NCBI GenBank assembly: GCA_963580245.1
Contig: CAUZJO010000004.1
Location: 6,380 to 70,379 of the forward strand
Reading direction: 5' to 3'
Length of the DNA stretch: 64,000 nucleotides
DNA from: Candidatus Sumerlaeia bacterium
GTDB lineage: Bacteria > Sumerlaeota > Sumerlaeia > MVZB01
Shown: piece by piece, positions 5,643-45,993 of the stretch
Position numbering within the stretch: position 1 is the stretch's first letter
How the letters are laid out: the number at the start of each line of letters is the position of its first letter
Notes under the pieces: generated by a model
Databases searched by the model: none
What the model was told of the DNA's origin: nothing
Seen by the model: the letters and a program-made list of their open reading frames with translations, nothing else
Translations under genes and position numbers: made by a program

Positions 5643-6275
5643 TTACTTCTCCTCCCCCAAGCGGTCCTCATAGTGCTCAAACAACTTCTGGCGTTCAGCG
5701 GGCCCGAGCAATACTTCGGGGGTCATAAAAACGATCAGCTCACGCACCAGCTCCGAGGAATCCTCCTTGGTGCCGAAGAGCCAGCGCAGGCCCGGGATGC
5801 GGCCCAGAACGGGCGGGCGTCGTTTAATGTCCACCTTGGTATCGATCAGGATGCCGCCGATGACCATCGTCTCGTCGTCATCGATCGCCAGTTTCGTTTC
5901 AAACTCGGTGTTGTCGGTCACGATCTGATCGTTGATGATCACGCCCTCGCGCACGCGGCTGTTCTCCAGGATCATCTGCAGCATGACCTGATTGTCGACG
6001 TTGATCGTCGGTTTGACCAGCAACGTCAGTCCGACCGGCCTATATTGGATTTGGGTCGTCTGTCCCGCGGTATCGGTTTGGTTGCCGGCCTCGAAGGCAA
6101 TCTCCGAGCCGACGACCAGCCTGCCCTGTTCATTGTTGTTGAGTGCCGGGAACGGTTCGGAAACCACCCGCGAGTTGGTGTTCTTGAGCAAAAGCTGCAC
6201 GAGTAGCGCCACGTTAACGTTGGCCCCGAGCACGACGTTGCCGGCCCGCGTCGTCGTTTCGGCGGTTCGGATCAC
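5643..6275 (-). pseudogene. Secretin C-terminal domain fragment (GspD/PilQ family) lacking signal peptide and N-domains, abutting gspE 3' end
   Basis: The translation carries hallmark secretin-domain motifs: RVVSEPFPALNNNEQGRLVVGSEIAF, PVLGRIPGLRWLFG and ELIVFMTPEV. There is no ATG (the ORF track uses GTG at 6275). The same frame stays open up to 6419 and overlaps the gspE stop. The product is far too short for a functional secretin (about 210-260 aa versus more than 500). Confidence 0.6.
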
Positions 6276-6390
6276 CTCGCCCGCTTCTCGAGTGCTGATG
6301 ACGTCGGTCGGGCTGCGTGAGCTGGGTCCGAAGCTCTCGATGAAGCCCAGGTTGGACAGGCCCAGGATTGCGTTGTCGAGTTCGGCCGGG

Positions 6391-7984
6391 TCAATTGAAT
6401 TGGGATCGGGCGTGCAGAATCATGTCGTGCAGCTTCTCGTGCATCGTGAGCAGCTCGAAGATGCCCACCCGGCCCCGGTAGCCGCGCTCCAGACATTCCT
6501 CGCAGCCGTCCGGCTCGAAGACCCGCTCAGGCAAGTCGGTCACGTCGAACTGCCTGGCCAGGATCGGGTCGGGCGCCGCCGGCGCGCGGCACGAGGCGCA
6601 CAAACGCCGCACCAGGCGCTGCGCAAGCACGCCTTGGATCGACGAGGCGATCAAAAAGGGCTCGACGCCCATATCCAGCAGCCGTGTCACCGCCCCCGGC
6701 GCATCGTTGGGGTGGAGCGTCGAGAAGACCAAGTGGCCGGTCAGCGCGGCGCGGATGGCGATATCGGCCGTCTCGCGGTCCCGAACCTCGCCGACCATGA
6801 TGATGTCGGGGGCCTGGCGGACGATCGCGCGCAGGCCGTGGGCGAAATCGAGCCCGCGCCGCGGCCGCACCGGGATCTGGGTGATCCCGGCGATCTGATA
6901 CTCGACGGGAACCTCGATCGTGATGATTTTCTTCTCGGGCGTGTAAATCTAGATCAGGCTGCCGTAGAGGGTGGTCGTCTTCCCGCTGCCGGTGGGGCCG
7001 CAGATCAGCAAGTCCCGTACGACCGGTGCAACAGCGATGAATAGCGCTCGCGGATCGATTCCTCCATGCCCAGGTGGGTCAGATTGAGCAGTGACTCGTC
7101 CTTGTTGAGCAGGCGCAGCACCACGCTCTCGCCATGGATGGTCGGCACGGTCGCCACGCGCACGTCGACGCGCTCACCGAGCAGGTTGACGCAGAACTGG
7201 CCGTCCTGCGGGACGTAGCGCTCGGCGATGTCCATCCCGGCCATGATCTTGACGCGTGAGATGATCGCGGACTGGAGGTGCTTGGGGGGGCGGCATCTCG
7301 TGCAGGATGCCGTCGATGCGGTATTTGATCTTGAGCTGGGCCTCGAACGGCTCGATGTGAATGTCGCTGGCACGTTGCTCGATGGCGTTGGAGACGATCA
7401 TGTTGACCAGGTTGATCAACGTCGGCTCGCGCGCCATCTCTTGGAGGTCGTGCAGGTAGATTTCCTGGTCGCCGCCGGCCTCGCCCTCGATCTTCTCCAT
7501 GCCCTCGATCATGCTCTCGACCGTGACTCCGTAGAGTTCTTGCAGGTAATGGGCGAAGTCGCTTTCGCGCGCGACGGCGAGTCGCACGGGCCGGCCCGCC
7601 AGGAATTCGAGCTCGGCGCGCACCTCGGCGGCCAGCGGGCCGGTCGCGACGCAGCGCAGATAGCCATTCTCGCCGGCCTGAGGCAGGACGCGGCTGGCCT
7701 GGGCCAGCGAGGCCGGGATCAGGTCCTTCAGCGTGGGGGCGGGGGGGCTCGGTGAGGTCCCAGAGGGGGACGTCGGCCTGGACCGCCAGTGCCTGGGCCA
7801 GTTGGTCCTCATTGATGAAATTCAGCGAGCGCATCACGGCGCCCACAAGGGGCCGGGGTTGGGCGTGGGCCTGGACGTCAAGACAGTGATCCAGCCGCTC
7901 TTGGCTGATCAGACCATTTCCCGCGAGCCAGGCGCCCAGTAACTTCTTAGCCACGATGTTCCCTTTTGGAGCCTCGATGATCAA
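6391..7984 (-). pseudogene. gspE: Type II secretion / type IV pilus assembly ATPase (GspE/PilB family), disrupted
   Basis: GspE motifs are spread over three reading frames: an N-terminal domain, RASDIHIEPFEAQLKIKYRIDGIL, VKIMAGMDIAERYVPQDGQF, the Walker A box [43 protein letters not shown] and [11 protein letters not shown]. Both frame changes coincide with G7 homopolymers (about 7284-7290 and 7741-7747). An in-frame TAG (6950-6952) follows the Walker A box. Confidence 0.8.
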
Positions 7985-8685: not shown

Positions 8686-10911
8686 ATGGCCCGGGCGAAG
8701 AAATCCACCGGTAACACGACCCCCTCCTCCCCGTCGGACGCCATGCCGCCAGGCGCCCAGGTCTCGCCGGGGGCGGATTTTCCCCTCAGGCTGGAGCTAT
8801 TGTTGAGGGACCCGCCCGGCCCGGCCGGCGTGGACCCATTCGTGGTGCTGAACGATGGGGGGGAGCACGCGCGCGTTTACCTGGGCCGGATCCTGGCCGG
8901 CCAGCGGACCGTGCTGCGCCACGTGGCTGTCAAACTGGCTCCGCGCCGAGGTCAGGCGTCCGGGATCGAAGGCCAAACCCTGAGCAACGCCCAGCGGCTG
9001 AGGCGCTGGGAACGCGAGTGGAAGCATTATCGCGCGATGGCCGAGGTGCCGGCCGGGGTGACGCCGGTCTATTTCATCCAGCCGGGCCAGGCACTGGCCG
9101 GCTCCGAGCCGCGTCCGCTGATCTGGCCGCCGCTCATCTTCTGCGCTCTCACCCGGTCGCTGCTCCAACCACGTTCGCGCCAGGGGGGACGGCTGAGCGT
9201 TTGCCGCGACGATTCCGTCCTGACCCAAAACGGCCTGCCGCCCCACGGAGGATCGTATACGTTCCTCTGGGACGCCGAGGCGGTTGCGGCGGGCGAGGCG
9301 CCCACGTTTTACCAAATCCCGGCCCCCGGAGCCGAGCAGACCGTCGGCCCGGCCGAGCCATTCGACGCCTGCCTGCGCGCGACCGCCGAGCTGCTGGCCA
9401 ATCCGGGCGAGCTGGTCGCTCGCGGCTCGGACGGGGGGCTGGCCCACATCGTCGAGATCGCCCGCGACTTCCCGGCCATCCTGGACGAGGAGGTGCGTAA
9501 GAAGCTGGTCGCGGAGGACCCGGTCAAGGTATTCAGCCCTTGGCACCTGGACGAGACGCCCGTGCTGGTTTTGGAGCTTAACCGCTTCCACTACGATGAA
9601 TTCTGCGACCTGCTTGGGGGAATCGAGGGCAAGACCTTCGCCACGCGTTACGGCGGTCCAAAAGCGGCCGTCGGCCAGCGCTTGCGTTTGGGCGACAGTC
9701 TGAACGGCGAGGGGTCTTCGCCCCGGCTCCTGTTCTCCGCCGACAGCACGGGGTTGGACGCGGTCGAGCGGTTCCGCCTCAAGTGGTCGCTGTTCTCCCA
9801 ACTCTGCGGCGCGACGCTGGTGTATCAGCGCCGTTGCGGCGCCCCACATCTACGCCTCTCGCCCCGCCACGTCATGGTCCAGGTCGAGCCGAGCGGCGAG
9901 GGGCTGCCCTCGTTATGGAACTTCCAGACCCGATTGATCAGCCTGGGGTCGCCGACGCTCGAAGTCGAGGGGATGGACCTGCCCGAGATCTTCGTCCCGC
10001 CGCTGGGCACCGACCCGCTCTATCAGGCCGAATTGGTGCGCAACAGTTCGTTCGGCATTGCCCAGCGCGGCGATTTCCTGCTCACGGGCGTCGAGAAAAG
10101 CAAAGCCGAGGGCCGCTCCGAGGTCGTCGCGCAAATCCATCACGAAGGCATCGGGCTGCGCTGGCTCAGCCCCAAAGACCACATGCTGGTAACGCTGGGC
10201 AAGCATCTGGTCGCCGAAGCCGAGATCGAATTCATGGCCCACTGCGATGAGAGCAAGGATTACTCGGGCCGGATCATCTATCTGAAGAGCCTCCCCCTGG
10301 AGCTGGACAAAGACAAGGTGGCGGCGCTGGAAAAGTTGAAGGGGATTCGAGTGCCCAACGCCCAGTTCCGCCTGCTGCCCACGATGCACGTCCCATGCGA
10401 TCTGTTTAGCCTGGGGATGCTGCTTTACCGCGCGATGATCGTCAACGACGGCCAGGGGATCGGCGAGGTCGCCCTGGCGCTCGACGGGCTGCGTCAGGAC
10501 CTCAATTCACTGGCGGTGGTTGAATGCGTGGAAGGCCAGGAAGCCTCCTTCTGGGAAGCCTTGCTCAGTGGCCACCGCAATCTGGACGCGGCCACGATCT
10601 TTGACCGCCCTCAGATATTCTTCCACGAACATCAGCGCGCCCCGGACCGGCCCAACGCCATCCCCAAGTGCCTGTGGCACGAGGTCATGGCGCTGGGTCT
10701 GAAGCTGGTCACGCTCAACGAGGATTTTAGTTTCTGCGCCAATCACGGTGACTACGATCCGGAGTATCCCTCGGCGCGACTGGAGCCGCTGACCCGGCGC
10801 GTGGCGGAGATGGGCCGCAAGATCGACACCGCCTTGTTCTCATTCACCGCCCGCAACGCCGAGATCCGCCAGGCCCTCGAGCATGTCGCGCCGGAGATGA
10901 CGATCTCGTGA
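8686..10911 (+). CDS. Large uncharacterised protein with degenerate protein-kinase-like catalytic motifs (candidate pseudokinase), translationally coupled to fha
   Basis: Start taken at MARAKK (8686); the ORF is open from 8587 (GTG). Residues ~400-500 align to the kinase catalytic core but with catalytic residues substituted: HLRLSPRHVMV for HRDLKPENILV, NFQ for DFG, and SFGIAQRGDFLLTG for DxWSxGxxxYELLTG. A second similar block at ~520-615 reads GIGLRWLSPKDHMLV ... DLFSLGMLLYRAM. The stop overlaps the fha ATG (TGATG). Confidence 0.55.
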   Translation: MARAKKSTGNTTPSSPSDAMPPGAQVSPGADFPLRLELLLRDPPGPAGVDPFVVLNDGGEHARVYLGRILAGQRTVLRHVAVKLAPRRGQASGIEGQTLSNAQRLRRWEREWKHYRAMAEVPAGVTPVYFIQPGQALAGSEPRPLIWPPLIFCALTRSLLQPRSRQGGRLSVCRDDSVLTQNGLPPHGGSYTFLWDAEAVAAGEAPTFYQIPAPGAEQTVGPAEPFDACLRATAELLANPGELVARGSDGGLAHIVEIARDFPAILDEEVRKKLVAEDPVKVFSPWHLDETPVLVLELNRFHYDEFCDLLGGIEGKTFATRYGGPKAAVGQRLRLGDSLNGEGSSPRLLFSADSTGLDAVERFRLKWSLFSQLCGATLVYQRRCGAPHLRLSPRHVMVQVEPSGEGLPSLWNFQTRLISLGSPTLEVEGMDLPEIFVPPLGTDPLYQAELVRNSSFGIAQRGDFLLTGVEKSKAEGRSEVVAQIHHEGIGLRWLSPKDHMLVTLGKHLVAEAEIEFMAHCDESKDYSGRIIYLKSLPLELDKDKVAALEKLKGIRVPNAQFRLLPTMHVPCDLFSLGMLLYRAMIVNDGQGIGEVALALDGLRQDLNSLAVVECVEGQEASFWEALLSGHRNLDAATIFDRPQIFFHEHQRAPDRPNAIPKCLWHEVMALGLKLVTLNEDFSFCANHGDYDPEYPSARLEPLTRRVAEMGRKIDTALFSFTARNAEIRQALEHVAPEMTIS

Positions 10912-12773
10912 TGGCCGCGAAAAAAGCTACTCCCCTGATCTGTCTGGAGGTCATCGCCGGGCCGCTCGACGGTCTGCGCTACGAGGGCAAGCAGGGCATC
11001 GTCCAGATCGGGCGCTCCGATGGGACCGGCTCCGATAAAAAGCGCAACGACCTTGTCCTCCAGCGCGACTCCTATGCCTCGAGCTTCCATGGGAGGGTCT
11101 CCCACGCCGACGGCCAGTGGACGCTGAAAGACCTCAACAGCACCAACGGCACGTGGGCGGCCGGTCGCAAGCTGGCCAAGGGGGAGCAAACCACGTTGGT
11201 CGCAGGCGAGGTCTTCGTGGTGGGGAACACGGCGATCCGCCTGGGGACCAAGTCCTCGGGTCTGCCGCCGGTCGACCCGACGGCCTCGGCGGGATTATCG
11301 CCGGCCACCCAGACCATGCTCAATCGGGCCAGGAACGTTGCCCGCGAGCAGCTAAGCCCGTGGATCGGTGCCTCGCACGTCTTTCGGGTCATCGCCGGCT
11401 CCGACGCCCCGCCGCTGCCCGAATTCTTCCAGTCCGTCCATCTGGACTCGGCGGCGACGGCCGACATTATCACTGAATTCGATTACTGGCAAGGCGAGCT
11501 GGAATGGATCGGCAGCAACGTGCTGCGCGGCAGGCGCACACCCGAACACATGCTCAAGAACGTCCTGTCGACGCCCCGACTGCAATTGATCCTGACCCTG
11601 GCCGACCGCGTTCGCGAGAGGGCTTCGGCGCCCCACGTCGAGCCGATCCACCTGCTGGCCGGTATGTTTCTGGAACCCGGCAATATCGTGGTCCTGGCGC
11701 TGTCGGCGGCGGGTTACTCGGCCGACCAGCTCGCCGCCGCGGCCAAAAAGATCATCCAGGGCGAGGAGGAGCCGGATGAAGAGGAGGATCGGGCGCCCGA
11801 GCGCGAGGCGACCGTGCAGGTGCAGTTGCCGATGCCCGCCGCGGTCAAGCAGCGCGAGGCGGTCGATCCGGAGACGTGGCTCCTTGCGCGCCAAATGATG
11901 GACCGGCTGCAGTCGGTTCAAAACGAGTATCACATGGCCGAGCCCGAGGCGCGCTTCGAAGCGATCTGCAAGGCCGCGCGAGAGGGCCTGCAGAAGGCCC
12001 CGCCCGCCAAGCGCCTGGCGATCGTCGACGAACTCCATTATCTCTTCCCCGTGCTCGAAGAAGCCCTGGCGCCTCCTCCCTCGATCTTCGCGGAGGCGCC
12101 CAAGGAGGCTCCGGTCGGGCCGGCGGAAACGACCGACAGCCACCCGGAGCCCGATAACATGCCCGACATGGCCGCGGCGAGTGACGAGCTGGAAACGGGC
12201 GTGGACACCGATTATCTGCTCAATCAGATCTTCGGCAGCGAGAAGATCGCCCAGTCGATCAGCGAGATGGACGAGAGGAACAGCTTTCTGCGGCTGATGC
12301 AGCACCTTTATACGTTCGCGTTGGAGATGGAGCAGCTCGCCAAGGGGCTGGTCCAGTCGTTGCAGGGCGGCGCCGGGGGCGAATCGCGCTACTTCCTGCC
12401 CTTCACGGCCCACGATCTGCGCATGATGGTGCAGAAGATACTGGAGGATAAAGACGAGAGGGAGACGGTGGGAAATATCCGCCTCTACCTCTATGATCTG
12501 AGCAACTGGATCGTGGCGCTGGTGGCGGCCCACCAGAAGGCCACCAGCCAGTGGTACGGGGAGCTGTGGGAGCGCATCAGCCCGTTGGCGATCCAGGACG
12601 AGGCCAAAATCTCCTCACTCAACAAAGCCCTGGGCCAGAGCAAGGCGGAGCTGTGGAAGACCTATGAGCAGGTGGCCGTGGACCTCAAACCCGAGATCGT
12701 CGAGGACGAGTTCAACGAACGGATCGGCAAGCTGGTCACCGAGGAGTTCCGCCGCATGAGCTCTCGCGGCTGA
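10911..12773 (+). CDS. fha: FHA domain protein (T6SS Fha/TagH-like) with Clp_N-like repeats
   Basis: N-terminal FHA domain signature: GRSDG...NDLVLQRDSYASSFHGRVSHADGQWTLKDLNSTNGTWAAGRKL. Two Clp-N-like repeats follow (IGASHVFRVIAG; HVEPIHLLAGMFLEPGNIVVLALSAAGYS). The gene sits immediately upstream of tssJ-tssK-tssL-tssM, as fha1 does in P. aeruginosa H1-T6SS. Confidence 0.8.
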   Translation: MAAKKATPLICLEVIAGPLDGLRYEGKQGIVQIGRSDGTGSDKKRNDLVLQRDSYASSFHGRVSHADGQWTLKDLNSTNGTWAAGRKLAKGEQTTLVAGEVFVVGNTAIRLGTKSSGLPPVDPTASAGLSPATQTMLNRARNVAREQLSPWIGASHVFRVIAGSDAPPLPEFFQSVHLDSAATADIITEFDYWQGELEWIGSNVLRGRRTPEHMLKNVLSTPRLQLILTLADRVRERASAPHVEPIHLLAGMFLEPGNIVVLALSAAGYSADQLAAAAKKIIQGEEEPDEEEDRAPEREATVQVQLPMPAAVKQREAVDPETWLLARQMMDRLQSVQNEYHMAEPEARFEAICKAAREGLQKAPPAKRLAIVDELHYLFPVLEEALAPPPSIFAEAPKEAPVGPAETTDSHPEPDNMPDMAAASDELETGVDTDYLLNQIFGSEKIAQSISEMDERNSFLRLMQHLYTFALEMEQLAKGLVQSLQGGAGGESRYFLPFTAHDLRMMVQKILEDKDERETVGNIRLYLYDLSNWIVALVAAHQKATSQWYGELWERISPLAIQDEAKISSLNKALGQSKAELWKTYEQVAVDLKPEIVEDEFNERIGKLVTEEFRRMSSRG

Positions 12774-12965
12774 GGGCGGGCGACATTTCCATGGTTGGCG
12801 TTTTTCGCAACCCGTATATTTTAACGGGGAGAGGGAAATGCGGGCTAAAAAGGGACACTGGCGTTGTTGATCCTGATTACGAATAATGGCGGGCGTTGAA
12901 CAGGCGCGAGTTCCGCCCCCCCCAGGCGCGTGGACTCGGGGGCCAAGACCCACCGGGAGGATGGC

Positions 12966-13499
12966 ATGATGAAGCGGCACGTTTGTCTTTTGTTGGCACT
13001 GGCCTTGACCGCGGCCGGCTGCAAGAGCGTTCCGATCAAGACGCGTGAAATCCTCTTTTATCGGTCCGATGACCTCAATGACGGCCGTCCCTGCGCCGTC
13101 GATATCATCTATCCGAGAGACTACGAGCAGTTTCAGGAGATCACGCGCGAGATCGGCCCCGAGAAATGGTTCAAGAGCGACCTCTATGATCGCGTGTATA
13201 AAGACGATCCCTGGCTGGAGCGCAAGATGACCCGTGCGCGGCTCGATGTGAAGGTGCCCGAGGATGAATACATGGTCATCTTCGCCGAGTTCAGTAATCC
13301 CGACCCCAATCCCCCGCGTGGGCATCGCGCCTACCTGGTCTATGAGGAAGAAATGCAGCCCAAGGCCAAGAAAACCGAATACATCTGGGTCCACGATGGC
13401 AGTCTGGAGCGGCTGCGCAAAAAGCCCAAGCGGATGCGGCGCGACCGGGACCGTGACCGGAGGGGCCGGGATCGGGATAGCGACCGGGACAAGGATTGA
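12966..13499 (+). CDS. tssJ: T6SS outer-membrane lipoprotein TssJ (SciN family) with RD-repeat C-terminal tail
   Basis: Lipobox LLLALALTAAGC. DLNDGRPCAVDIIYPRDYEQF matches the TssJ/SciN core (LNPDxNGRPxPVxVRxYxL). Small size and the position before tssK are consistent. The C-terminal tail is RRDRDRDRRGRDRDSDRDKD. Confidence 0.65.
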   Translation: MMKRHVCLLLALALTAAGCKSVPIKTREILFYRSDDLNDGRPCAVDIIYPRDYEQFQEITREIGPEKWFKSDLYDRVYKDDPWLERKMTRARLDVKVPEDEYMVIFAEFSNPDPNPPRGHRAYLVYEEEMQPKAKKTEYIWVHDGSLERLRKKPKRMRRDRDRDRRGRDRDSDRDKD

Positions 13500-13665
13500 T
13501 CGGCCCAACCCCTGGGCCGTTAACGGAGAATTCTTCGTACTCGTAACTCGTAACTCGTAATCGAACATTCTCGATCATCGAGAGAAGAACGGAACATCGA
13601 TTACGAATTACGAGCACGAGCACGAAGGTGAGCATGAGAGTAGGGGACTTGAGGTAAGGCGGACG

Positions 13666-15033
13666 ATGAGCGAGTTCATGGAGATCAACTGGGGCGAGGG
13701 GATGTTTTTGCGGCCCCACCACTTGCAGCAATTCAGCCGCTATCGGCGGATCGCGTTGCAGCGCGAGATCGCCATGTCGCGGCCCTTCGCTTACGGCGTC
13801 CAGGAGATCAACATCTCGACGGCCGAACTCGAGGGTTTCGTCTTCTCGATCCGCTCGTGCAATATCCGGCTCAAGGACGGCACGCGCATCATGGCGCCGC
13901 ACAACGGCGAGTTCGAGCCGCGTGATTTCAAAAAGGAATTGGACGCGGCCGCCGGCGTGCTCGACGTCTGCGTCGGCGTGCCGCTGCTGATGGAACGCGA
14001 ACCCAACACGCTAACGATGTCCGAGGAGTCCACCCTCTATCACCGCCGCTACAAGGCGATGGTCGTCGAAGTGGTCGACGAGAACACCGGAGCCAACGGC
14101 CAGGCCATCGAGATGCGCAAGTTGAGCCCGCGCATTTTGTTCAAGGGCGAGGACATGGCCGGCTATGAGGTGATGCAAGTCGCCCGCATCGAGCGTTCGG
14201 GGTTCGAGGACAACAAACCGATCCTCTCGCAAAACTTCATCCCATCGATCCTGGTCATGGAAGCCTGGCCGCCGCTGTTCGATTACTGCAAGGACATCTA
14301 CCAGCAACTGATGGCCAAGAACCGCTCGCTGATCAGTCAGATCGCGGGGCGCAAGATCGCGTTCGGTTCGGAGGGGGTCGGCGGCCCCGAGGCGATGCTC
14401 AAGCTCAACATCACCAACCGCTACGCCGCCTTCCTGCGCCAATGGACGAGCATGCCCAACCTGCATCCGTTCGACGTGTTCGTCGAGCTGTGCCGCCTGG
14501 CGGGGGACCTGGCAATCTTTGATGAATCGCGCTCGGTGCCCGATATCCCGCTCTATAACCACGACGACCTGGGCGGCTCGTATCTCGACCTGCTGCGCGT
14601 CCTTGAGCGACTGATCAACAACATCCTGCCGACCACGTTCATCAAGCGGCGCTTCGAGCCCGTCGAGAACCGTCGCGAGGTGGCCCTGGAGGACGAATGG
14701 CTGCTGCCCGAAGTCGAGTTCTACCTGTGCATCGAGAGCGATCAGGACGACGACAAGATCGACCGGGAAGTCTCGTTCCTGAAGATGGGTTCGGTCGAGG
14801 ACCTGCCCACGCTGATCAACCGCCGCCTACCGGGGTTGATGCTGCGCCGGATTCGGCGCACCCCGATCGGCTTGCCCGACCGGCCCAATTACCACTTCTA
14901 CCGTATCTCGCGCGAGGGCCGGTTCTGGGACAGCTTGCTCGAGACCAGAGTGCTCTCGGCCTATGGCCTGGCCGACGAAACGCTCGAACTGGACCTGTAT
15001 ATCTTGCTTAGACCGGAGAAGGAGGGGGAATGA
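13666..15033 (+). CDS. tssK: T6SS baseplate subunit TssK
   Basis: N-terminus INWGEGMFLRPHHLQQFSRY matches the TssK hallmark (WxEGxFLxPQHFQQ). The length (455 aa) and the position between tssJ and tssL also fit. Confidence 0.85.
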   Translation: MSEFMEINWGEGMFLRPHHLQQFSRYRRIALQREIAMSRPFAYGVQEINISTAELEGFVFSIRSCNIRLKDGTRIMAPHNGEFEPRDFKKELDAAAGVLDVCVGVPLLMEREPNTLTMSEESTLYHRRYKAMVVEVVDENTGANGQAIEMRKLSPRILFKGEDMAGYEVMQVARIERSGFEDNKPILSQNFIPSILVMEAWPPLFDYCKDIYQQLMAKNRSLISQIAGRKIAFGSEGVGGPEAMLKLNITNRYAAFLRQWTSMPNLHPFDVFVELCRLAGDLAIFDESRSVPDIPLYNHDDLGGSYLDLLRVLERLINNILPTTFIKRRFEPVENRREVALEDEWLLPEVEFYLCIESDQDDDKIDREVSFLKMGSVEDLPTLINRRLPGLMLRRIRRTPIGLPDRPNYHFYRISREGRFWDSLLETRVLSAYGLADETLELDLYILLRPEKEGE

Positions 15034-15181
15034 CGGGGCAATCGGCCACCGCCGCCCATCCCCGGAACCCCGTCGTGAAACATATCGTGCTCGTAACTCG
15101 TAATCGAAATCCCGGTCATGCTCCAATGCTTGAGACCGTCCCATTACGAATTACGACCACCGACCGGCCAGGGGTGATTCG

Positions 15182-16084
15182 ATGACGCTGAATGAATTGG
15201 CCTCGGACCTGTTCCTGTTTCTGGTCACGTTCCGCCGCCAGGTCCGCAAAGGCCTGATCCCCGACATCTATCAGGTCCGCTCGCAACTGCTCGAGATCTT
15301 CGAGACCCAGCAGCAGCGCGCAAGCGAGGATCCCAAACTCGAAAAGCAATACCAAAAGGGGCGCTATCCGTTGGTGGTGACCGCCGATGAGATACTGATC
15401 AACGCCAACTGGGCCTATTCCAGTCAGTGGGAGGACGAGATCCTCGAGTACGAGTTCTTCAAGACGCGCATCGCCGGCGAGAAGTTCTTCGAGACCATCG
15501 AAGAACTCGGGGACGAAGACGACTCGGTCGCTGAAATCCTCTATCACTGCCTGGCGCTGGGTTTCGTGGGGCGTTACAAGGGGGACGCCGAGGAACTTCG
15601 CCGGCTCAAGCGCCGCCTGTATCGGATGCTCCCCGGACGCGTGGGCGAGGACGATAAACGCATCTCGCCCGACGCCTATTTCGTCGCCGAGGGGGTCAAG
15701 GACATCTACAAACCACTGATGAACCTGACCCGCATCGTGCTCATCTGCGGGACGCTCCTCATCGTCTTGTGGATCGGGTTCTTCTATTACCGCACCTTCG
15801 TCATCCCGAGTAAGATCAAGGAATTCGCCAAGGAGATGCGCCAGGCCGCCGCCCCCGGCGGATACGTCCTGGATGACGATGATGAAAACGAAGAGGAGGA
15901 GGATGAAGACGAGGACGAGGCGGATGATTTCTTCGCGCTCAAGGACGAACAGGATGAGGATGAGGACGAAGAATCCTCGGAAAACGATGACGACGCCGAT
16001 GACGTGAGTTCCGATGAAGACGATGACGGCGAAGACGAGGACGAAGACGAAGACAAGGACGAGTTGGGTGATTTGTTTGGTTAG
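15182..16084 (+). CDS. tssL: T6SS membrane protein TssL (DotU/IcmH family) with hyper-acidic periplasmic tail
   Basis: DotU core LYHCLALGFVGRYKG, a single TM (IVLICGTLLIVLWIGFFYY), then a ~95 aa D/E-rich tail. TAG stop. Confidence 0.75.
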   Translation: MTLNELASDLFLFLVTFRRQVRKGLIPDIYQVRSQLLEIFETQQQRASEDPKLEKQYQKGRYPLVVTADEILINANWAYSSQWEDEILEYEFFKTRIAGEKFFETIEELGDEDDSVAEILYHCLALGFVGRYKGDAEELRRLKRRLYRMLPGRVGEDDKRISPDAYFVAEGVKDIYKPLMNLTRIVLICGTLLIVLWIGFFYYRTFVIPSKIKEFAKEMRQAAAPGGYVLDDDDENEEEEDEDEDEADDFFALKDEQDEDEDEESSENDDDADDVSSDEDDDGEDEDEDEDKDELGDLFG

Positions 16085-16185
16085 AACCTCATCGCCGAAC
16101 GCATCGCCCGTGCTTGGGGCGTGTTGAACAGTTGGGTATGAATGTCGTGAGGCTGAAAATTGGATCGATCGGGGTGTAAACGGAA

Positions 16186-19100
16186 ATGCTCGCGCAATTA
16201 GCGAACCAGCCAATCCTCTATCGCTTTATGGCCGGGGGCTCGATGGCCATCGCCGTGATCGCGGTGATCGGCCGCTTTTTCGGCTGGACGATCGCGGGGC
16301 TGCTGATCGGCGGCTTGTTGATTGCCGCCGCCGTCATGTGGTTTTTCAACAAAGGCATCAAGCTTAAGCGCAAGAAGAAGGCCAGTGCTTTTGACAAGGG
16401 CCTGCAGGCCGACGCCGGCAAGGCCGGCCACGGCAAAGCCGAACAGCGCAAGGCCCAAGGCGAGATCTATCAGCGCTGGAACCAGGCCGTCACCGAACTC
16501 AAGCGCGGCGGCCTGAACCTCTATGATCTGCCCTGGTATTTGCTGATCGGCGAGCCCCAATCGGGCAAAAGCACCACGCTGCGCCACTCCGGCCTGGAGT
16601 TCCCCGTGGGGACCGAAGCCCTTTCGGGTGCCGGCGGCACACGCAATTGCGATTGGTGGTTCACCAACGAGGCCGTCATCCTCGACACCGCCGGTCGCTT
16701 CACCTTCCAGGAAAAAAACGCCCCCGACGCCGATGAATGGAAAAGCTTCCTCAAGTTGCTCAAGAAGAACCGCCCCGCCTGCCCGATCAACGGGGTGGTC
16801 GTGACCATCCCGCTGACCTCGCTGCTGGGCGATTCGCCCGAAGAACGGGAAGACAAGGCACGTAACCTGCGCGAGAAACTGACCGAAATCCAGCGCGAAT
16901 TGGAAGTCCAGTTCCCGGTCTTCATCCTGCTGACCAAGTCCGACCAAATCCTTGGTTTCACCGAGTTCTTTTCGCGGCTGGGTGCGACCGAACAGCGCCA
17001 GTTGCTCGGCTGGTCGATGCACGGCCCGTTCATCCAGGCCTACGACCCCGACAAGTTCAAGGAGGTCTTCGACAGTCTCTATCAACGCATCCACAAGTGG
17101 CGCAACAAGATCATCGGCGAGGACCTGAGCCTGACCGAGGTCGATAAACTCTACGTCTTCCCCGAGGAATTCAAGTCGGTCCGCGATCCCTTGCACGACT
17201 ACCTCAAATCGGTCTTCGTCAAGACGCACTACCTGCCGCCGCTGTTCTTCCGCGGCTTCTATTTCACCAGCGGCATGCAGACGGGCCAGCCGATTGCCAA
17301 GGCCTGCGCGCAACTGCTGCGCAGGGCCGGTGAGGGCGCCGACGAGATCGTCGAGCACCTGCAAAAGATCTTCGAACGTTCGCGCGCCTTCTTCATCCGC
17401 GACTTCTACATCGAAAAACTCTTCCCCGAGCGCAACCTAGTCATCCATTCCGAGAAGAAGATGAAGATGGGGCGCAAGGTGGGGATGCTGGCGGTGTGGG
17501 GCGGCGCGGCCTTGTTGCTGCTGACCATGCTGTTCATCGTCTGGCGCGGCATCATCCTAAGCCGGGGCGTGGGCGGGATCGAGCAGGCGGCCAAAGTCGT
17601 CAAACGCGAGTTCATCTCGGACGTGAGCGCGGCCCGCCGCGACGATCCCGAACCCAAGGAGACCGAGGACGCGGCCGAGGCCGTCAAAACGGCCTCTGAA
17701 TTCCATGACAAGTCCGAAAAGACGGTTGAAAAGATCGGTAGCCTGGCCCCCTATCTGCGCGACATGTATTTCCTGTACTTCTTGCAGAACAGCCTGCGAG
17801 ACCAGGGCCAGGCGCTCTACACCCAACTGGCGGCGACCGAGCCCGGGGCGAGCGCCGATGATGAGGCGATCAATCGACTCTATCGAGACTACGTCCGCCT
17901 GTGGAGCCTCAACCCGATCTGGGAGGCGCACGCGCTCGCTGATGAGGGAAGATTCAAGAAGGCCGGGTCTTTCAAGTACTCATCGATGATGCAGTCGGGC
18001 GTCACGGACAAAACGCAAGAGACGTTCCAGGACAATCTGGAGCGGCTGCGCGATATTCTCGGCGATAAGAAGGAATCACCCAACTTCGAGAAGTATCCGG
18101 TCGCCATCCCAATCGTTCCGGGTCACGTGAACCCCAAACGCAACGACGTGATCCGAAAAGAGATCGAGCACATCAAGGATAGCTTCAACCCCGTCGAGCA
18201 GGACACCGTGAATCGGGTCGTCGGGCGGGCTTCGGGGATACGTGAACTCTACGCTTCGGCCGTCGTCGGCCTGTTCAGCGTCCCATGCGGCTACCCCGAC
18301 CCCGACACCGATCCCTTCACCGACGCGCGCAATTCGATCGGGCGCATCCGCGACGCGATCCGCTCGCTCGATGAAGTCCTGGCAGCCAACGAGGACCTGG
18401 GCGGTGCCATGGTGGTTGATGAGGCCGGGATCAAGGCAAAGTTTTTGGAACTGACCTGGGTCAAGGGCACTCTCAAGAAAAGCGAGGCCAGGGATGATCT
18501 GAGGGACTACATTCTCGAATCCATTCAAGAGGTCAACGAGCGGTTCAGAGACCATGCCCAAAAGGCCAAGCAACCGCTCGAAGCAGTCGGCGACGTCATC
18601 GGCGGCGATCCGCTTGGCCTCAGCGAAGGTCTCGGGATGGCTGGCGACGGCCTGGACATGATCGAGGCGCTCGCCGAGGCCCAGAACACGATGGTGGTCA
18701 ACGTACGCGAGCGTAAACCGAAAAACCCCGACGAAGTCGATCAGACCCTCAAGGAATGGCGCGGGAATGACGCGCGGATCGCTGCGGAGAGCTGGGCCAC
18801 GCAGGCCGCCGGCAGGGTGGACCTGCCCGCCACCTGGCAGCTTCCCACCCTGGGCAACTCGGTGGGGCAGATGGTCCGGCAAAGCGATGAAGCAGTCCAC
18901 GTCGAAGCGTGGCTGGCCTACATGCGCAACGTCCAACCGGGCGTCCTGCTTTCGGGCAGCCAGATTTCCCGGGCCTCGCTCGGTGGCGATCCCCCGCCGG
19001 GGGCCACGGCCGAACGGGTCAAGAGCGCCAACGACGAATTGGCCGACCTGGCCGCGCAACTGAGCCAGTTTCGCGAGGGGATCGAGTGCGACAACAACCG

Positions 19101-20388
19101 CCAACGCGTGCGCGGGCGCATGGAGAGCATCGCCGGGGTCATCAACGCCAACAAGAACAATTTCAGCGGCTATTGGATGAAGGCTTTCGACCGCTGGCAT
19201 CCGGCCGGATGGATCGAATCGATTTCGAGTTGGAAGGCGTTCAAGCAGGACGACCTGATGCAGGGCACGGCCCTTTCGCAGCGCGTCAAGCAGGACCTCC
19301 AACGCCTGGTGGCCCACGTCAAGAACTACAAGGACACGGTCGGATCGGTCGGCAAGCTCGAGTCCATTTACTCGGACTTGCGGCAGTTCGTCACCCCCGG
19401 ATCGGCGTTGGAGAATAACGCCAACCTTTTCTCCGGCACCATCGAAGAGATGGAACTGAATGAGCTCGGGGCGCGGTTGCAACTCGAGGAGCCGGGCCAG
19501 GGCGGCATGACGCGGGCCGAGGCGATCGAGAGCATCGCCGAGCGCAGTTCCTCGCTCAATAGCAAGTTCAGGCCCTACCCCGACAAGGTGCGCGCGCTGC
19601 TGGGCGACCCCACCGAGCAATTCGAGCATGAACTGGGACAATTCCTGGCCAAATGGTCCAAGGCCCTGGCCGGTAAGTTCCCGTTCGCGGTGCCCGCCGA
19701 CCAGGTCGTGGTCGAAGCGGCGTCGATGGATATCCCCCAAGTCGACGCCAAATTGCTGCGTGACTTCTATTACGGCCCCGACAGCCTGGAGGCGTTCCTC
19801 GGCAAGTACGGCCCGATCTATGAGAAATGGTCGGACAAACCGGCGAACGAGGCGGCCAAGGATTTCTTCGACCAATGCCTCAGGCTCAAGGACTATTTCC
19901 TTGACCCCGGCGTCAAAGACTACCGCAAACTGCAACTGGAAGGGACTTACATCGGGTTCGTGGGTAAATCGACCGACGACCTGCGTCAGATCAGCGAAGT
20001 CATCCGACTACTCTTGCCGACCTCTTCCACCGAACGCAAAGTGGCCCGCTGGCGATCTCAGGTCGAAGGCGACAAGACCGCGTTTGAATGGACCCCCGGC
20101 GACTATGGCGAGGAGGGATTCCTGGTCTTCGAGTCCAAGCTCGAACGCGGCGATCGACCCAACAAGGCGGAGTTGCGCGTGGGCGGCGACTTCTCGGTCC
20201 TGGCCTACATCGTGACCCAGGTCAACGGCGTGCCCGAGGTCGAGCGGCGCAAGTGGCCGGTCAATTTCTCGGTCCAGCCCGAAAACAGCAAACAGGATCA
20301 GCGCTACATGATCAGTTTCGTCTTCGTGTTCGAAAACAGCCTGCCGCGCCTGCCCGATTGGGGAGATGTTGCAAAGTGGACGAAATGA
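16186..20388 (+). CDS. tssM: T6SS membrane complex protein TssM (IcmF family)
   Basis: Two N-terminal TM helices, then the Walker A region LYDLPWYLLIGEPQSGKSTTL (IcmF NTPase hallmark), a third TM near aa 430 and a large periplasmic domain. 1400 aa. Confidence 0.85.
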   Translation: MLAQLANQPILYRFMAGGSMAIAVIAVIGRFFGWTIAGLLIGGLLIAAAVMWFFNKGIKLKRKKKASAFDKGLQADAGKAGHGKAEQRKAQGEIYQRWNQAVTELKRGGLNLYDLPWYLLIGEPQSGKSTTLRHSGLEFPVGTEALSGAGGTRNCDWWFTNEAVILDTAGRFTFQEKNAPDADEWKSFLKLLKKNRPACPINGVVVTIPLTSLLGDSPEEREDKARNLREKLTEIQRELEVQFPVFILLTKSDQILGFTEFFSRLGATEQRQLLGWSMHGPFIQAYDPDKFKEVFDSLYQRIHKWRNKIIGEDLSLTEVDKLYVFPEEFKSVRDPLHDYLKSVFVKTHYLPPLFFRGFYFTSGMQTGQPIAKACAQLLRRAGEGADEIVEHLQKIFERSRAFFIRDFYIEKLFPERNLVIHSEKKMKMGRKVGMLAVWGGAALLLLTMLFIVWRGIILSRGVGGIEQAAKVVKREFISDVSAARRDDPEPKETEDAAEAVKTASEFHDKSEKTVEKIGSLAPYLRDMYFLYFLQNSLRDQGQALYTQLAATEPGASADDEAINRLYRDYVRLWSLNPIWEAHALADEGRFKKAGSFKYSSMMQSGVTDKTQETFQDNLERLRDILGDKKESPNFEKYPVAIPIVPGHVNPKRNDVIRKEIEHIKDSFNPVEQDTVNRVVGRASGIRELYASAVVGLFSVPCGYPDPDTDPFTDARNSIGRIRDAIRSLDEVLAANEDLGGAMVVDEAGIKAKFLELTWVKGTLKKSEARDDLRDYILESIQEVNERFRDHAQKAKQPLEAVGDVIGGDPLGLSEGLGMAGDGLDMIEALAEAQNTMVVNVRERKPKNPDEVDQTLKEWRGNDARIAAESWATQAAGRVDLPATWQLPTLGNSVGQMVRQSDEAVHVEAWLAYMRNVQPGVLLSGSQISRASLGGDPPPGATAERVKSANDELADLAAQLSQFREGIECDNNRQRVRGRMESIAGVINANKNNFSGYWMKAFDRWHPAGWIESISSWKAFKQDDLMQGTALSQRVKQDLQRLVAHVKNYKDTVGSVGKLESIYSDLRQFVTPGSALENNANLFSGTIEEMELNELGARLQLEEPGQGGMTRAEAIESIAERSSSLNSKFRPYPDKVRALLGDPTEQFEHELGQFLAKWSKALAGKFPFAVPADQVVVEAASMDIPQVDAKLLRDFYYGPDSLEAFLGKYGPIYEKWSDKPANEAAKDFFDQCLRLKDYFLDPGVKDYRKLQLEGTYIGFVGKSTDDLRQISEVIRLLLPTSSTERKVARWRSQVEGDKTAFEWTPGDYGEEGFLVFESKLERGDRPNKAELRVGGDFSVLAYIVTQVNGVPEVERRKWPVNFSVQPENSKQDQRYMISFVFVFENSLPRLPDWGDVAKWTK

Positions 20389-20503
20389 CGGGGAAGAAGC
20401 TATGGGCATTGATGGGTATTGAAAATTTGAAACGATCAATGAACCCATCAAGGTTGAATCCCCGCGCCGTGCGGCTACATTAACGTCACGAAAGCAAACG
20501 CCG

Positions 20504-21475
20504 ATGGGAATGTTTCAAAGCCTTAAGGACCGGTTCTTTTCGCGGCACGACGGGGCGATCGAGGACTTTGTGCTGGCCGCCTATGGCAAATTGCCGATCT
20601 ATAAGGACTATATTATCTGGGAATGTTACCACGGCGGGGCGGCGGAGTTTAAACAGTGGATGGATGAGACGTTCGGGTTGCAATGGGAAGAGTTCGACGG
20701 CAAGAACGCGCGCTTGGCCGGCCCCTGCCGCGCGATGCTGCTGATGCCCGGGGGGCGCAACGTCGTGGCCGTCTCGATGTGGCCATCGGCCGATGAGGGC
20801 AACATGCGCAAGTTCCCGTTCGCGCTGTTCGCGTGCTTCAATCGCGGCGAGATCGTCGGACTCGGTCTGCGCGGCGCGCTCGAGGCCCTCGATCCGGTCT
20901 GGCGGGCGCTCGAGGCCGAGTATGACCAGGTGCGCCACTGCGCCAATATCGAGGACCTCTATAGTTATTTCCAACGCTCGGCTCCCCAGGCCGAGCCGCC
21001 CGCCGAGGACCCCGCCGAAAAGGAACTGCCCCTGGCCGATTGGTTCGAGGCCATCTATCCCGGCCAGGCGGGCACCCTGCGCAAGTGGCTTGACAGCGAA
21101 CTTCAGATGGCCCTGGACGCGTACCGCGGGTTCCCCGAACAGGGCGAGTCGCTCGCCGCGCGCCTCCCGATCGCGCGCGACCTGAGCTTCTCCCGACAGG
21201 CCGAGTTCTGGGAACAGCTCTTCAAGCAAAACCTCAAGCGCTGCCCCGCCATCCCCAGCGTGGTGATTGACCTAAGCGGCCAAGACGGCCCCGCCGCGAT
21301 GAACCTGGCGTGGCGCGACCTCAAGCGCGAAGACGGTCGCCTGTTCGCCATGAAGTACGAAGACTACGAGCACCTTGAAAACCTCACTCCCGACGCCCCT
21401 CCGCGCGGCTCGGGCGAGGATATCGACCCCGACCTGACGATCGAAAAGTGGATCGCCGGCTTCGCGGAGCCGTAA
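20504..21475 (+). CDS. tagF: T6SS-associated protein TagF-like (DUF2094)
   Basis: N-terminal AAYGKLPIYKDYI resembles the TagF GFFGKLPxxGDF motif. It directly follows tssM, as in tssM-tagF arrangements. Confidence 0.55.
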   Translation: MGMFQSLKDRFFSRHDGAIEDFVLAAYGKLPIYKDYIIWECYHGGAAEFKQWMDETFGLQWEEFDGKNARLAGPCRAMLLMPGGRNVVAVSMWPSADEGNMRKFPFALFACFNRGEIVGLGLRGALEALDPVWRALEAEYDQVRHCANIEDLYSYFQRSAPQAEPPAEDPAEKELPLADWFEAIYPGQAGTLRKWLDSELQMALDAYRGFPEQGESLAARLPIARDLSFSRQAEFWEQLFKQNLKRCPAIPSVVIDLSGQDGPAAMNLAWRDLKREDGRLFAMKYEDYEHLENLTPDAPPRGSGEDIDPDLTIEKWIAGFAEP

Positions 21476-21494: not shown

Positions 21495-22130
21495 TCACCA
21501 GTCATCTTCGCGAAGGTCGATCATGACGAGACCGGTCGCGAAATCGAGGATTTCATAAGGGTCCAGCCCGATGTCGAACCCTACGATCATCAGCTGCGCG
21601 CCCGCCCCAAACTCCGTCGGTGAATAACCCGGACCCATGCCCGCGCCCGTTGCGACGTCGGCGACGCTGACCTGGACGCCGTTATAACTCTCCAGACCGG
21701 CGGGCAGTCTGGGAATCCGGCGCATGCGCGGACCCGGCAGCCCGGCATAGACGCCGGCATAAGTCCCGATGAAACCGCTGGCGGCCTTCGTCGCGCGGGC
21801 ACCGACGGCGATGCCCGGTCCGAGCCTGGCGCGCAGACGGAATACGTCGACGACATCCAAGATTCGGTTCGGCGCATAGAAAACAAAGCGGTGCAGGACG
21901 CCCGGCCCATTATCCTCCGACCCCGAGTTCGGCGCCGCTTGGGTGGCCGCGCCTTCAGGGTTGCCGGGGGCCTGCCGGCTGACGGTCGCGCATCCGCCGG
22001 CCGCCAAGGCCAACGGCAAGAGCAGGACCAGTCCATTAAGGCAGACACACCGGGCCTTTGACCCGCGATAACCATTGAGTTCTTCACGTTCATGGATGTA
22101 CATATTCGACCTCCGACCATTTTGTTGCAA
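21495..22130 (-). CDS. Lipoprotein of unknown function
   Basis: Signal/lipobox LVLLLPLALAAGGC. Gly/Ala-rich secreted protein, convergent with tagF. Confidence 0.5.
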   Translation of the reverse strand: MQQNGRRSNMYIHEREELNGYRGSKARCVCLNGLVLLLPLALAAGGCATVSRQAPGNPEGAATQAAPNSGSEDNGPGVLHRFVFYAPNRILDVVDVFRLRARLGPGIAVGARATKAASGFIGTYAGVYAGLPGPRMRRIPRLPAGLESYNGVQVSVADVATGAGMGPGYSPTEFGAGAQLMIVGFDIGLDPYEILDFATGLVMIDLREDDW

Positions 22131-22337
22131 CGAAACACAATCATGTCGCCATTTTATTTTCTATCTTTTTTTGCTGTCCGAAAGGTTCGCGAAGGCCAAG
22201 TCAGCGCGGATCACTTCAATGTCCAGCGCCGCAGAGCCGAGATCGACATTTTGAGGTTGTCGAAGGATTAAAGATCGTGGTTTGCTAAACGTGGGTTTCT
22301 CACGTCATGAAGCGAAAATTAAGGTTTCCAGCAATAG

Positions 22338-22646
22338 GTGAAGGATGGACGGATGAATTCGAAACCGCCGCGGCCTAGCGGCTTGCATGAACGACCGAGC
22401 TTCTTCCTTGACACCACGCCCGAGGCATTGCACGCTTATTATGGGGTCATTTGGCGGATGACGCCCGAGGAGAGACTGAGCGTCGGCCTGCGGCTCGGCC
22501 GCCGGATGCGCGCGCTGAGCGAAGCGGCCGTCCGCATGCGCCTTCCCGACTACAATGACAAGCAGGTCCGCCTGGCCGTCATTCGGCTGCGGCTGGGCAG
22601 GGAGCTGTTCGAGAGAGCCTATCCGGGGATCGAGATCAAACCCTAA
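22338..22646 (+). CDS. Small hypothetical protein, translationally coupled to downstream nucleotidyltransferase-like gene
   Basis: 102 aa. The stop and the next ATG overlap (TAATG at 22646). Confidence 0.4.
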   Translation: MKDGRMNSKPPRPSGLHERPSFFLDTTPEALHAYYGVIWRMTPEERLSVGLRLGRRMRALSEAAVRMRLPDYNDKQVRLAVIRLRLGRELFERAYPGIEIKP

Positions 22647-23257
22647 TGGAAGGGGTCGACTTACTTCGTGAGATAACTCGCGCATTGGATGAAGTGGGAT
22701 TACCATACATGGTCACGGGGTCGGTTGGTTGCATGCTCCATGGCGAACCGCGGGCGACTTACGACATCGGCATCGTGATTGACCCAACTCCCGAACAGCG
22801 CTCCGCGATGCTCGAAGCGCTTGACCGTGACTGGATCGTCTTCGCCGACGCCGCTCGCGAGGCCCTGCGGAACCGATCGATGTTCAACGTCATCAATCAA
22901 GCCGGCGCCGAGAAGGTGGACTTCATCATTCGCCGAGATCGTGAATACAGCAAGATGGAATTCTCCCGCCGCGTCAGCGCAACGCTATTGGGCACCGAGA
23001 TTTCAGTCGTCTCGCCCGAGGATTCGATCTTGAGCAAACTCGAATGGGCCAAGAAGGGGGACTCCGAAAGACAGTTTCGCGATGCGGTCGGCGTGGCGGT
23101 AACGCAGACGGGGCGACTCGATTTCGATTACATGCGTCGGTGGGCGGGCACCTTGGGGCTATCGGACGAGCTTTCGCGTTTGCTTCGACGGACGAGCGAG
23201 ATGGGTGAGGACAGAGGGGGCGGAACGCCGCATGACGCGGGTAACCCGAAACTCTGA
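22646..23257 (+). CDS. Nucleotidyltransferase-fold protein (MNT-like), possible toxin-antitoxin/defence pair with upstream gene
   Basis: TGSVGCMLHGEPRATYDIGIVID fits the pol-beta NTase GS...D.D motif. 203 aa. Confidence 0.45.
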   Translation: MEGVDLLREITRALDEVGLPYMVTGSVGCMLHGEPRATYDIGIVIDPTPEQRSAMLEALDRDWIVFADAAREALRNRSMFNVINQAGAEKVDFIIRRDREYSKMEFSRRVSATLLGTEISVVSPEDSILSKLEWAKKGDSERQFRDAVGVAVTQTGRLDFDYMRRWAGTLGLSDELSRLLRRTSEMGEDRGGGTPHDAGNPKL

Positions 23258-34308: not shown

Positions 34309-34466
34309 TCCGGCGATCTTCTTTCCGAGGCCCCCTCCCCCGCGTCGCGGAGTCCAGATACGAATCAACCCCGGCGAAGTCGAAGGATCACCCCCACCGA
34401 CTCCACTGGGGTTGAAATTTTGACCGCGAACGAATTCCCGACCGAATCCAATCGCCCGAGATCGAT

Positions 34467-34952: not shown

Positions 34953-34953
34953 A

Positions 34954-36087: not shown

Positions 36088-36179
36088 GTTACATCCTCCT
36101 GGTTGTTTCCGACTTCGATACCCGCGCCTTCCCGCGCTGCATCTAGCCTCAAATGGAATCTCTGGATCCCTATAGACAT

Positions 36180-36350: not shown

Positions 36351-36378
36351 TCGGTGCCGCAATGAATCTACGAATCTC

Positions 36379-45914: not shown

Positions 45915-45993
45915 CACGGGGACCTCTCGGGGGTGTGGGATTCTGTTAGGACGACCGATCTCGGAACCATCTGTTTGTTGTCTTCGCTTCGGA

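Follow-up and report, generated by a model that had tools for sequence, protein, structure and literature searches.

The window analysed here (the whole stretch of 64,000 nucleotides) was found to carry, at positions 8686–21475, seven intact open reading frames (ORFs) on the plus strand, with a high G+C content at third codon positions (GC3), which encode components of a type VI secretion system (T6SS). The ORFs agree exactly with the gene calls of the source contig (ENA ERZ27247711 k141_1224014; 79,709 bp), an identical gene set is carried by the Logan assembly of SRR9039920, and each is equal in length to its orthologues. The first (8686–10911) encodes a cytoplasmic kinase-like protein of 741 aa, probably a pseudokinase, and shares a 4-bp ATGA overlap with the second, consistent with translational coupling. 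The second (10911–12773) encodes a protein of 620 aa composed of an FHA domain (PF00498), a Clp-N-like domain and a conserved C-terminal region of ~330 aa, which can be regarded as an Fha/TagH analogue. These are followed by an outer-membrane-type lipoprotein of 177 aa in the position of TssJ, with a signal peptide, a lipobox and an Arg/Asp-repeat C-terminal tail (12966–13499), the baseplate subunit TssK of 455 aa (13666–15033), TssL/DotU of 300 aa (15182–16084), TssM of 1400 aa (16186–20388) and a TagF-like protein of 323 aa, a putative post-translational brake (20504–21475). A preliminary description of this DNA had read the block as fha-tssJ-tssK-tssL-tssM-tagF with fha starting at position 8686. 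That position is the start of the separate 741-aa gene, with fha occupying 10911–12773. Of the remaining assignments, those of TssK and TssL pass profile searches, as does that of TssM for its cytoplasmic half, while profiles do not secure those of tssJ and tagF.

Pairwise comparison of the genes with their closest relatives gave ratios of nonsynonymous to synonymous substitution (dN/dS) of 0.14 for TssK, 0.15 for the lipoprotein, 0.28 for the kinase-like protein, 0.30 for TssL, 0.31–0.35 for TagF, 0.34 for the FHA protein and 0.36–0.55 for TssM, with dS probably being underestimated at this GC3 and the true ratios therefore likely to be lower. The high value for TssM is attributable to its periplasmic region. 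Judged by these ratios, all seven genes are under purifying selection.

TssK was found to match PF05936 across its full length (263 bits) and TIGR03353 with 259 bits against a cutoff of 100. It is also the most conserved protein of the module, having 85% identity to its nearest named homologues in addition to the dN/dS of 0.14. TssL matches PF09850 (130 bits) and TIGR03349 (108 bits against a cutoff of 90). It consists of a cytoplasmic DotU domain followed by one transmembrane helix (~178–205) and an acidic, low-complexity periplasmic tail, the latter two being read from the sequence, and has no OmpA-like domain. The end of TssL (window 15872–16084) is a run of ~70 residues which are almost purely Asp and Glu, and Arg-Asp repeats, RDRDRDRRGRDRDSDRDKD (window 13430–13499), make up the tail of the lipoprotein. 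These two proteins, presumed partners in one complex, have periplasmic tails of opposite charge. The TagF-like protein scored below threshold with both TagF_N (25.6 bits, the gathering score being 27) and TIGR03373 (26.9 of the 41.2 bits required). Its orthologue in an Acidobacteria-type locus (L017) has a stronger TagF_N match on record, and its place directly 3′ of tssM is kept in all relatives. Between tagF and a sulfatase gene (window 21495–23257) there are three small ORFs without family assignment, of 211 aa (minus strand), 102 aa and 203 aa (both plus strand), which are not kept beside the module in relatives.

TssM was found to have the canonical topology, with two N-terminal transmembrane helices, a cytoplasmic NTPase domain with the Walker A motif GEPQSGKST, a third transmembrane helix (431–462) and a periplasmic region of 940 aa. 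Its N-terminal 500 residues match IcmF-related_N (217 bits), and the cytoplasmic part has 35–36% identity with canonical TssM (hhalign probability of 100%). The TIGR03348 score of 351 bits falls under the cutoff of 388 because the match is confined to residues 32–503. For the periplasmic region, no match was found to IcmF-related (PF06761), IcmF_helical (PF21070) or IcmF_C (PF06744) even at E ≤ 10. Five canonical TssMs from comparison loci matched each of the three when tested likewise, while two members of the clade (L016 and L017) had unmatched periplasmic domains like the window protein. Within the clade the periplasmic part has 28–51% identity, compared with 75–85% for the cytoplasmic part. 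A likeness between ‘GKFPF’ and ‘GRYPF’ in the periplasmic parts of the window and canonical proteins appeared in a forced alignment only and is not significant.

The lipoprotein possesses the lipobox ...LTAAG|C, with Cys19 being invariant across six orthologues, and has no match in Pfam, NCBIfam or the Protein Data Bank (PDB). A TssJ reference profile recognised the ORF preceding tssK in 34 comparison loci and in none of the loci of this clade. Comparison of the lipoprotein with a profile of 34 TssJ sequences by hhalign gave a probability of 68% when the signal peptide was included and of 4.4% for the mature part, the score of which (21.9) was marginally above those of 30 column shuffles (≤17.9). 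An AlphaFold single-sequence model (pLDDT 37) was unusable, and a search for homologues with the lipoprotein fused to the kinase-like protein as the query returned matches to the kinase-like family alone. The product of 12966–13499 is thus best described as a lipoprotein which has the size and the position expected of TssJ, but for which homology to TssJ is not established.

The FHA protein matches PF00498 with 44 bits over residues 32–105, and it has the residues expected to bind phosphothreonine (R35, S57, H60 and N79), none of which varies among six orthologues. Its score with the TagH model TIGR03354 is only 35 bits, where 120 are required, and no match to T6SS_FHA_C (PF20232) was found. 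A profile of its family matched the N-domains of ClpC/ClpB in the PDB (E = 4e-15) at profile positions ~115–290, and the orthologue in L106, a more distant lineage, has an added ClpV-like AAA module.

The 741-aa protein encoded directly upstream gave no match in Pfam, NCBIfam or the PDB when searched alone. It belongs to a family with 902 representatives at E ≤ 1e-3 in a library of 1.84 billion proteins. Among 51 diverse members, nine have a fused FHA domain, five T6SS_FHA_C and four Pkinase. The family profile had 31 PDB matches, mostly to Ser/Thr kinases (the best being StkP at E = 6e-4), in three co-linear regions corresponding to the N-lobe, the catalytic loop and subdomains IX–XI. Alignment of the 51-member family to four kinases by hhalign gave a probability of 89% over αE, the catalytic loop and DFG, placing these at residues ~365–427 of the window protein. 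An earlier mapping of residues 486–582 onto the catalytic loop (hhalign 14%) was dropped in favour of this one. The β3 Lys (K83) and the αC Glu (E111) are kept in the window protein, and R390 is found at the position of the HRD Asp, H395 at that of the catalytic Asn and S419 at that of the DFG Asp. R390 and H395 are invariant in an alignment of nine close members (A3), and in the wider family Asp is present at the HRD-Asp position in 16 and at the DFG-Asp position in 21 of the 51 members. On the basis of these residues, the first gene product is most simply explained as probably being a pseudokinase. An AlphaFold model from nine sequences had a pLDDT of 48, and a Foldseek search of the PDB with it returned nothing at E ≤ 1e-3, the want of support at the level of the fold being due to the poor model. 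Most members of the family have a CxxC...CxxC arrangement between the N-lobe and C-lobe equivalents (alignment A7), consistent with a zinc-ribbon-like insert. The window protein has lost most of these cysteines.

Homologues of the kinase-like gene open five otherwise complete T6SS clusters, in addition to the L017 and L106 loci. The preliminary description had reported ppkA and pppA as missing from the window. This holds in that neither Pkinase nor PP2C was matched by Pfam on the contig and the PpkA and PppA references gave no tblastn match. It does not account for the degenerate kinase-like gene, which occupies the place where a kinase is expected. The arrangement suggests an overlooked control module in place of PpkA/PppA, and no description of a T6SS-linked pseudokinase was found in the literature searched. 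An uncharacterised kinase-like family of ~900 representative clusters is thereby linked genetically, and in some genomes by fusion, to a T6SS FHA protein. In a lineage with 48% TssK identity (L015 1–6001), genes for a PP2C phosphatase and for a protein of 1735 aa in which there are two canonical kinase domains lie upstream of the module, and a Metallophos phosphoesterase gene is found directly 3′ of tssA in another relative (L007 19432–20496). Some relatives may therefore keep active phospho-signalling.

No genes for the sheath, tube, spike or baseplate wedge, nor for ClpV, TssA, PpkA or PppA, were found on ~77 kb of the 79.7-kb contig. This is based on Pfam scans of essentially all plausible ORFs in the window, precomputed Pfam annotation at the contig ends, and tblastn. 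Outside the window the ends were covered for 6.5 kb on one side and for 6.5 of 9.2 kb on the other, which brings the coverage to all but 2.7 kb of the contig. A panel of 49 reference proteins was used for tblastn. It included two TssA proteins of sister lineages, the others being taken from annotated T6SS clusters (Tistrella pTM1, Leisingera, Ralstonia, an E. coli plasmid and an Acidobacteria-type locus), and its matches to the window and both ends were to TssK, TssL and TssM alone. The Pfam content of the window outside the block consists of housekeeping and envelope genes, with no additional T6SS family. The absence of tail genes which had been noted for the window is thus extended to most of the contig, and the possibility that the tail set sits immediately beyond the window edges fails, since no T6SS genes were found in the covered part of either contig end. 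Scans of the DNA for promoters and terminators gave output at the level of chance.

The module is kept in at least four related lineages and is never beside tail genes in them. In two of these (L007 with 77% TssK identity, and L009/L013 with 75%) the order is kinase-like gene, FHA, lipoprotein, TssK, TssL, TssM, TagF and TssA, followed by unrelated genes. The same eight genes are found in L106 (48% TssK identity), likewise ending after TssA. In GCA_029553925.1 the kinase-like/FHA pair and the lipoprotein-TssK-TssL-TssM-TagF block are on separate contigs. A lone TssA gene (51% identical) was also identified between engA and a glycosyltransferase gene on an 8.4-kb contig (L027), which shares its ENA accession run with two contigs bearing TssK of the GCA_029553925.1 lineage. 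By contrast with these loci, in L017 the kinase-like gene, FHA, lipoprotein, TssK, TssL, TssM, TagF, Hcp, TagJ, TssA, TssB and TssC are contiguous. L017 belongs to a group with ~39% TssK identity, the named members of which are Thermoanaerobaculia/Holophagales. A metagenome scan with TssA yielded 80 loci, 69 of which had at least 700 bp 3′ of tssA. In 67 of the 69, tssB lay within 1.5 kb, and the two exceptions were both of the Sumerlaeota-clade loci. Together with the conserved split across lineages, this survey indicates that the separation of anchor and tail is derived, lineage-wide and old, and not an accident of this contig. The distribution of the module genes over two contigs in GCA_029553925.1 likewise makes dispersal a property of the lineage. 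It would follow that anchor, adaptor and regulator genes can persist as a self-contained unit, apart from tail genes, across deep divergence.

Other genes beside the module differ among the relatives. The ORFs adjoining it in three of them (L023 unk727, L013 unk788, and L015 unk375/541) showed no similarity among themselves or to T6SS references. Just 5′ of the module in L009 (1808–4581) there are an Imm35 immunity-family gene and two further genes paralogous to each other (209 and 211 aa; 37% identical), an array which resembles an immunity/effector array and hints at an antibacterial role. In a BRC1-like lineage (L010 1–9110), genes for large permeases of the FtsX family and for two ABC ATPases lie directly 5′ of the lipoprotein-tssK block, reminiscent of TagS/TagT in the sensing module of the H1-T6SS.

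It is considered probable, at about 70%, that a T6SS of this Sumerlaeota (BRC1) bacterium is dispersed in its genome, the block providing the half which anchors it in the envelope and controls it, and another locus or loci the contractile half. The preliminary description had left two options, core machinery encoded elsewhere or a repurposed or orphan complex, and it is the first that is better supported, by the sister tssA beside tagF, the fused cluster of L017, the two-contig assembly and dN/dS below 1 throughout. The retention and strong conservation of TssK, together with the Clp-N domain, point in the same direction. The genes for TssA, TssB, TssC, TssE, TssF, TssG, Hcp, VgrG, PAAR and ClpV would on this basis lie elsewhere in the genome.

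The roles of TssL/TssM, TssK and Fha/TagF in characterised systems are as given in PMC3953482 and in the reference list of PMC5061870. By analogy with the Pseudomonas, Agrobacterium and enteroaggregative E. coli (EAEC) systems, TssL and TssM would form the inner-membrane core, and TssK would dock the baseplate, linking TssL/TssM to the TssEFG-VgrG wedge. The lipoprotein and the fast-evolving periplasmic region of TssM probably serve as the TssJ-TssM periplasmic channel to the outer membrane. Firing is probably controlled through the FHA protein, with its intact phosphothreonine-binding residues and a Clp-N-type domain like the sheath-grasping one of ClpV. The co-translated kinase-like protein, having neither the catalytic Asp nor the Mg-binding Asp, is more likely to be a scaffold or phospho-acceptor than an enzyme and may thus act as a non-catalytic partner. 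TagF is probably a brake, as in the TagF/Fha pathway of Pseudomonas and Agrobacterium.

Several observations weigh against a dispersed T6SS. No TssB, TssC, Hcp, VgrG, TssE/F/G or ClpV was found for any genome of the Sumerlaeota clade, on ~77 kb of this contig or, in four relatives, within 10 kb of the module on each side. No TssA homologue of the window's own lineage was found by word-index search, tblastn or metagenome scan. A sister-lineage TssA, used as the query of the word-index search, had homologues of more than 36% identity in two lineages only, and the metagenome scan recovered L027 and nothing of the window's lineage. The break is systematic, tssB being missing beside tssA in both clade loci and also in the 48%-identity lineage. 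The periplasmic region of TssM does not pass the canonical domain tests and had an hhalign probability of ≤0.7% with a canonical profile of 42 sequences. A long-lived module without adjacent tail genes would also be expected of a function independent of the tail.

Such a function is the basis of an alternative in which the module of Sumerlaeota and a related lineage (kinase-like protein, FHA/Clp-N protein, lipoprotein, TssK, TssL, TssM and TagF, with or without TssA) would work without a canonical TssBC/Hcp/VgrG tail. It would have become a self-standing complex of the envelope, or would dock a contractile apparatus other than T6SS-i or some other apparatus. This alternative would explain why the unit is conserved without adjacent tail genes down to 48% TssK identity when tssB is beside tssA in all 67 comparison loci of other lineages, why the TssM periplasmic part and the lipoprotein are non-canonical, and why none of the searches found tail genes of the clade. 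The absence of tail genes is, however, a local result, covering the contig and the surroundings of the module. TssK and TssA have no known role beyond baseplate docking and tail polymerisation, and it is TssK that is the most conserved in the module. ClpV acts on the sheath through a Clp-N domain, and the FHA protein has a domain of this type. The variant TssM and lipoprotein also occur in L017, in one cluster with Hcp, TssA, TssB and TssC, which shows the variant anchor to be compatible with a tail. IcmF/DotU relatives, homologues of TssM and TssL, do function without a contractile tail in type IVB systems. In the window, however, the IcmF_IVB score is 55 bits against a cutoff of 1000 and the IcmH/DotU_IVB score is 43.9 bits against a cutoff of 50, and the T6SS-specific TssK is adjacent. 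A machine without a canonical tail is therefore considered unlikely. If it were true, this ‘T6SS membrane complex’ would be the first with TssK to have a role independent of a tail, and a true absence of tail genes would give the locus much greater importance.

The block could also be thought of as a decaying relic, in which the tail half was lost and the leftovers are heading towards pseudogenes. The flanks described previously, a decayed gspE/secretin locus on one side and unrelated genes on the other, were confirmed, including DUF1501/PSD1, the frameshifted gspE-like ATPase, the truncated secretin and the sulfatase. As the frameshifted gspE and truncated secretin are the 5′ neighbour of the block, gene decay does occur at this locus. 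The lack here of tssA, which is present in sister lineages, and the fast evolution of the TssM periplasmic region would also agree with loss. The seven ORFs are nevertheless intact, with lengths as in their orthologues, and dN/dS is well under 1 for each gene, which makes a relic very unlikely. The order is moreover kept over several species-level lineages with differing flanks, unexpected for neutral remnants.

The nearest named homologues of TssK (85% identity) are from the candidate division BRC1 bacterium ADurb.BinA292 and Candidatus Sumerlaeota, and that of the 741-aa first gene is from Sumerlaeota as well. A scan of GTDB genomes with TssK as the query recovered only BRC1 ADurb.BinA292. 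By these homologies the host is Sumerlaeota/BRC1-like, and the label of a PVC-type genome, used previously, is unsupported. The placement is made from homologues of the T6SS genes and not from marker genes, and this, with the metagenomic origin of the contig, is what could be said for a chimeric assembly or for a recent horizontal acquisition unrelated to the biology of the host. Against this, the block lies inside a single contig of uniform G+C, the block itself (0.60–0.65) being like the remainder, and gene order and flanks were recovered in the separate ENA and Logan assemblies. The closest relatives of TssK and of the kinase-like gene are both named Sumerlaeota/BRC1 and share the synteny, and no mobile-element genes were found flanking the block. 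Given the agreement of two assemblies and the conserved synteny, an artefact or foreign insert is highly improbable.

The gene order had been likened to that of the Pseudomonas aeruginosa H1-T6SS, an H1-type T6SS-i cluster. For the comparison the annotated cluster of Tistrella mobilis pTM1 (locus L019) was used, and the likeness stands: the order FHA protein, lipoprotein, tssK, tssL, tssM and tagF is identical, with TssK at 28% identity and the cytoplasmic domain of TssM at 35%. Regulation of the Fha/TagF type (PMC3953482) is a further point in common. However, the Tistrella genes are contiguous with tssA-B-C-E-F-G-H, hcp, vgrG, pppA, ppkA and tagQRST-like genes, none of which is on the window contig. 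The window also differs from H1-type systems in that the FHA protein has Clp-N in place of the TagH C-domain, the kinase is soluble, degenerate and encoded upstream with no PP2C phosphatase, and the TssM periplasmic domains and TssJ are undetectable. The Acidobacteria-type L017 has the seven-gene module in the same order, with a kinase-like protein of 27–28% identity, a TssM recognisable by its N-domain alone and a lipoprotein from the same family. It differs in that the module runs on into hcp, tagJ, tssA, tssB and tssC, and TssK has ~39% identity. One clade, with members among Sumerlaeota and Acidobacteria-type genomes, appears to have either replaced the periplasmic portion of the anchor, which reaches the outer membrane, or let it diverge past recognition.

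Precedents exist for an envelope-spanning part which departs from the TssJLM canon while the tail is conventional. The membrane complex of the Bacteroidota T6SS-iii is lineage-specific and lacks TssJ, TssL and TssM altogether (PMC10781749), and an Acinetobacter T6SS has no identifiable TssJ (PMC5061870). In the window, unlike in the Bacteroidota system, TssL is present and canonical, as is the cytoplasmic half of TssM, the divergence being limited to the periplasmic half and the lipoprotein. As an analogy only, the pseudokinase EssB/YukC of the type VII secretion system T7SSb works with the FHA domains of EssC (bioRxiv 10.1101/2020.05.09.085852; PMC9436818), so that a catalytically dead kinase fold is likewise paired with an FHA domain in a secretion machine. 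The machine is an unrelated one, and its pseudokinase is membrane-bound. The block is an unusual variant of a known machine and not a new kind. A T6SS is on record for both Acidobacteriota and Planctomycetota (bioRxiv 10.64898/2026.06.16.732483), and no description of one from Sumerlaeota was found in the literature searched.

To our knowledge, T6SS architecture is known almost solely from Pseudomonadota and Bacteroidota.

Several other features of the contig were identified. The gspE/pilB-like ATPase gene (window 5643–7821, minus strand) is split into three successive ORFs, covering T2SSE profile positions 6–54 (plus MshEN), 51–143 and 168–333, and the breaks are identical in the ENA and Logan assemblies. 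The broken gene is followed by a secretin fragment of 258 aa which has the C-terminal Secretin domain only. A second secretin gene (window 43461–46205, minus strand), adjoining genes for a helicase and an S1 protein, is apparently intact (914 aa stop-to-stop, with Secretin and Secretin_N) and may be the functional equivalent of the truncated one. A local dip in G+C, to 0.55 compared with 0.60–0.67 elsewhere, was observed at window 34000–36400, where there are a gene for an FG-GAP-repeat protein (34954–36087, minus strand) and an ORF of 229 aa without assignment, and it may represent a foreign insert. A HicB/HicA toxin-antitoxin pair is encoded at window 54320–54789 (minus strand; L006 15709–16178), and PemK/MazE and PIN/MazE pairs are situated just outside the window (L003 17111–18446).

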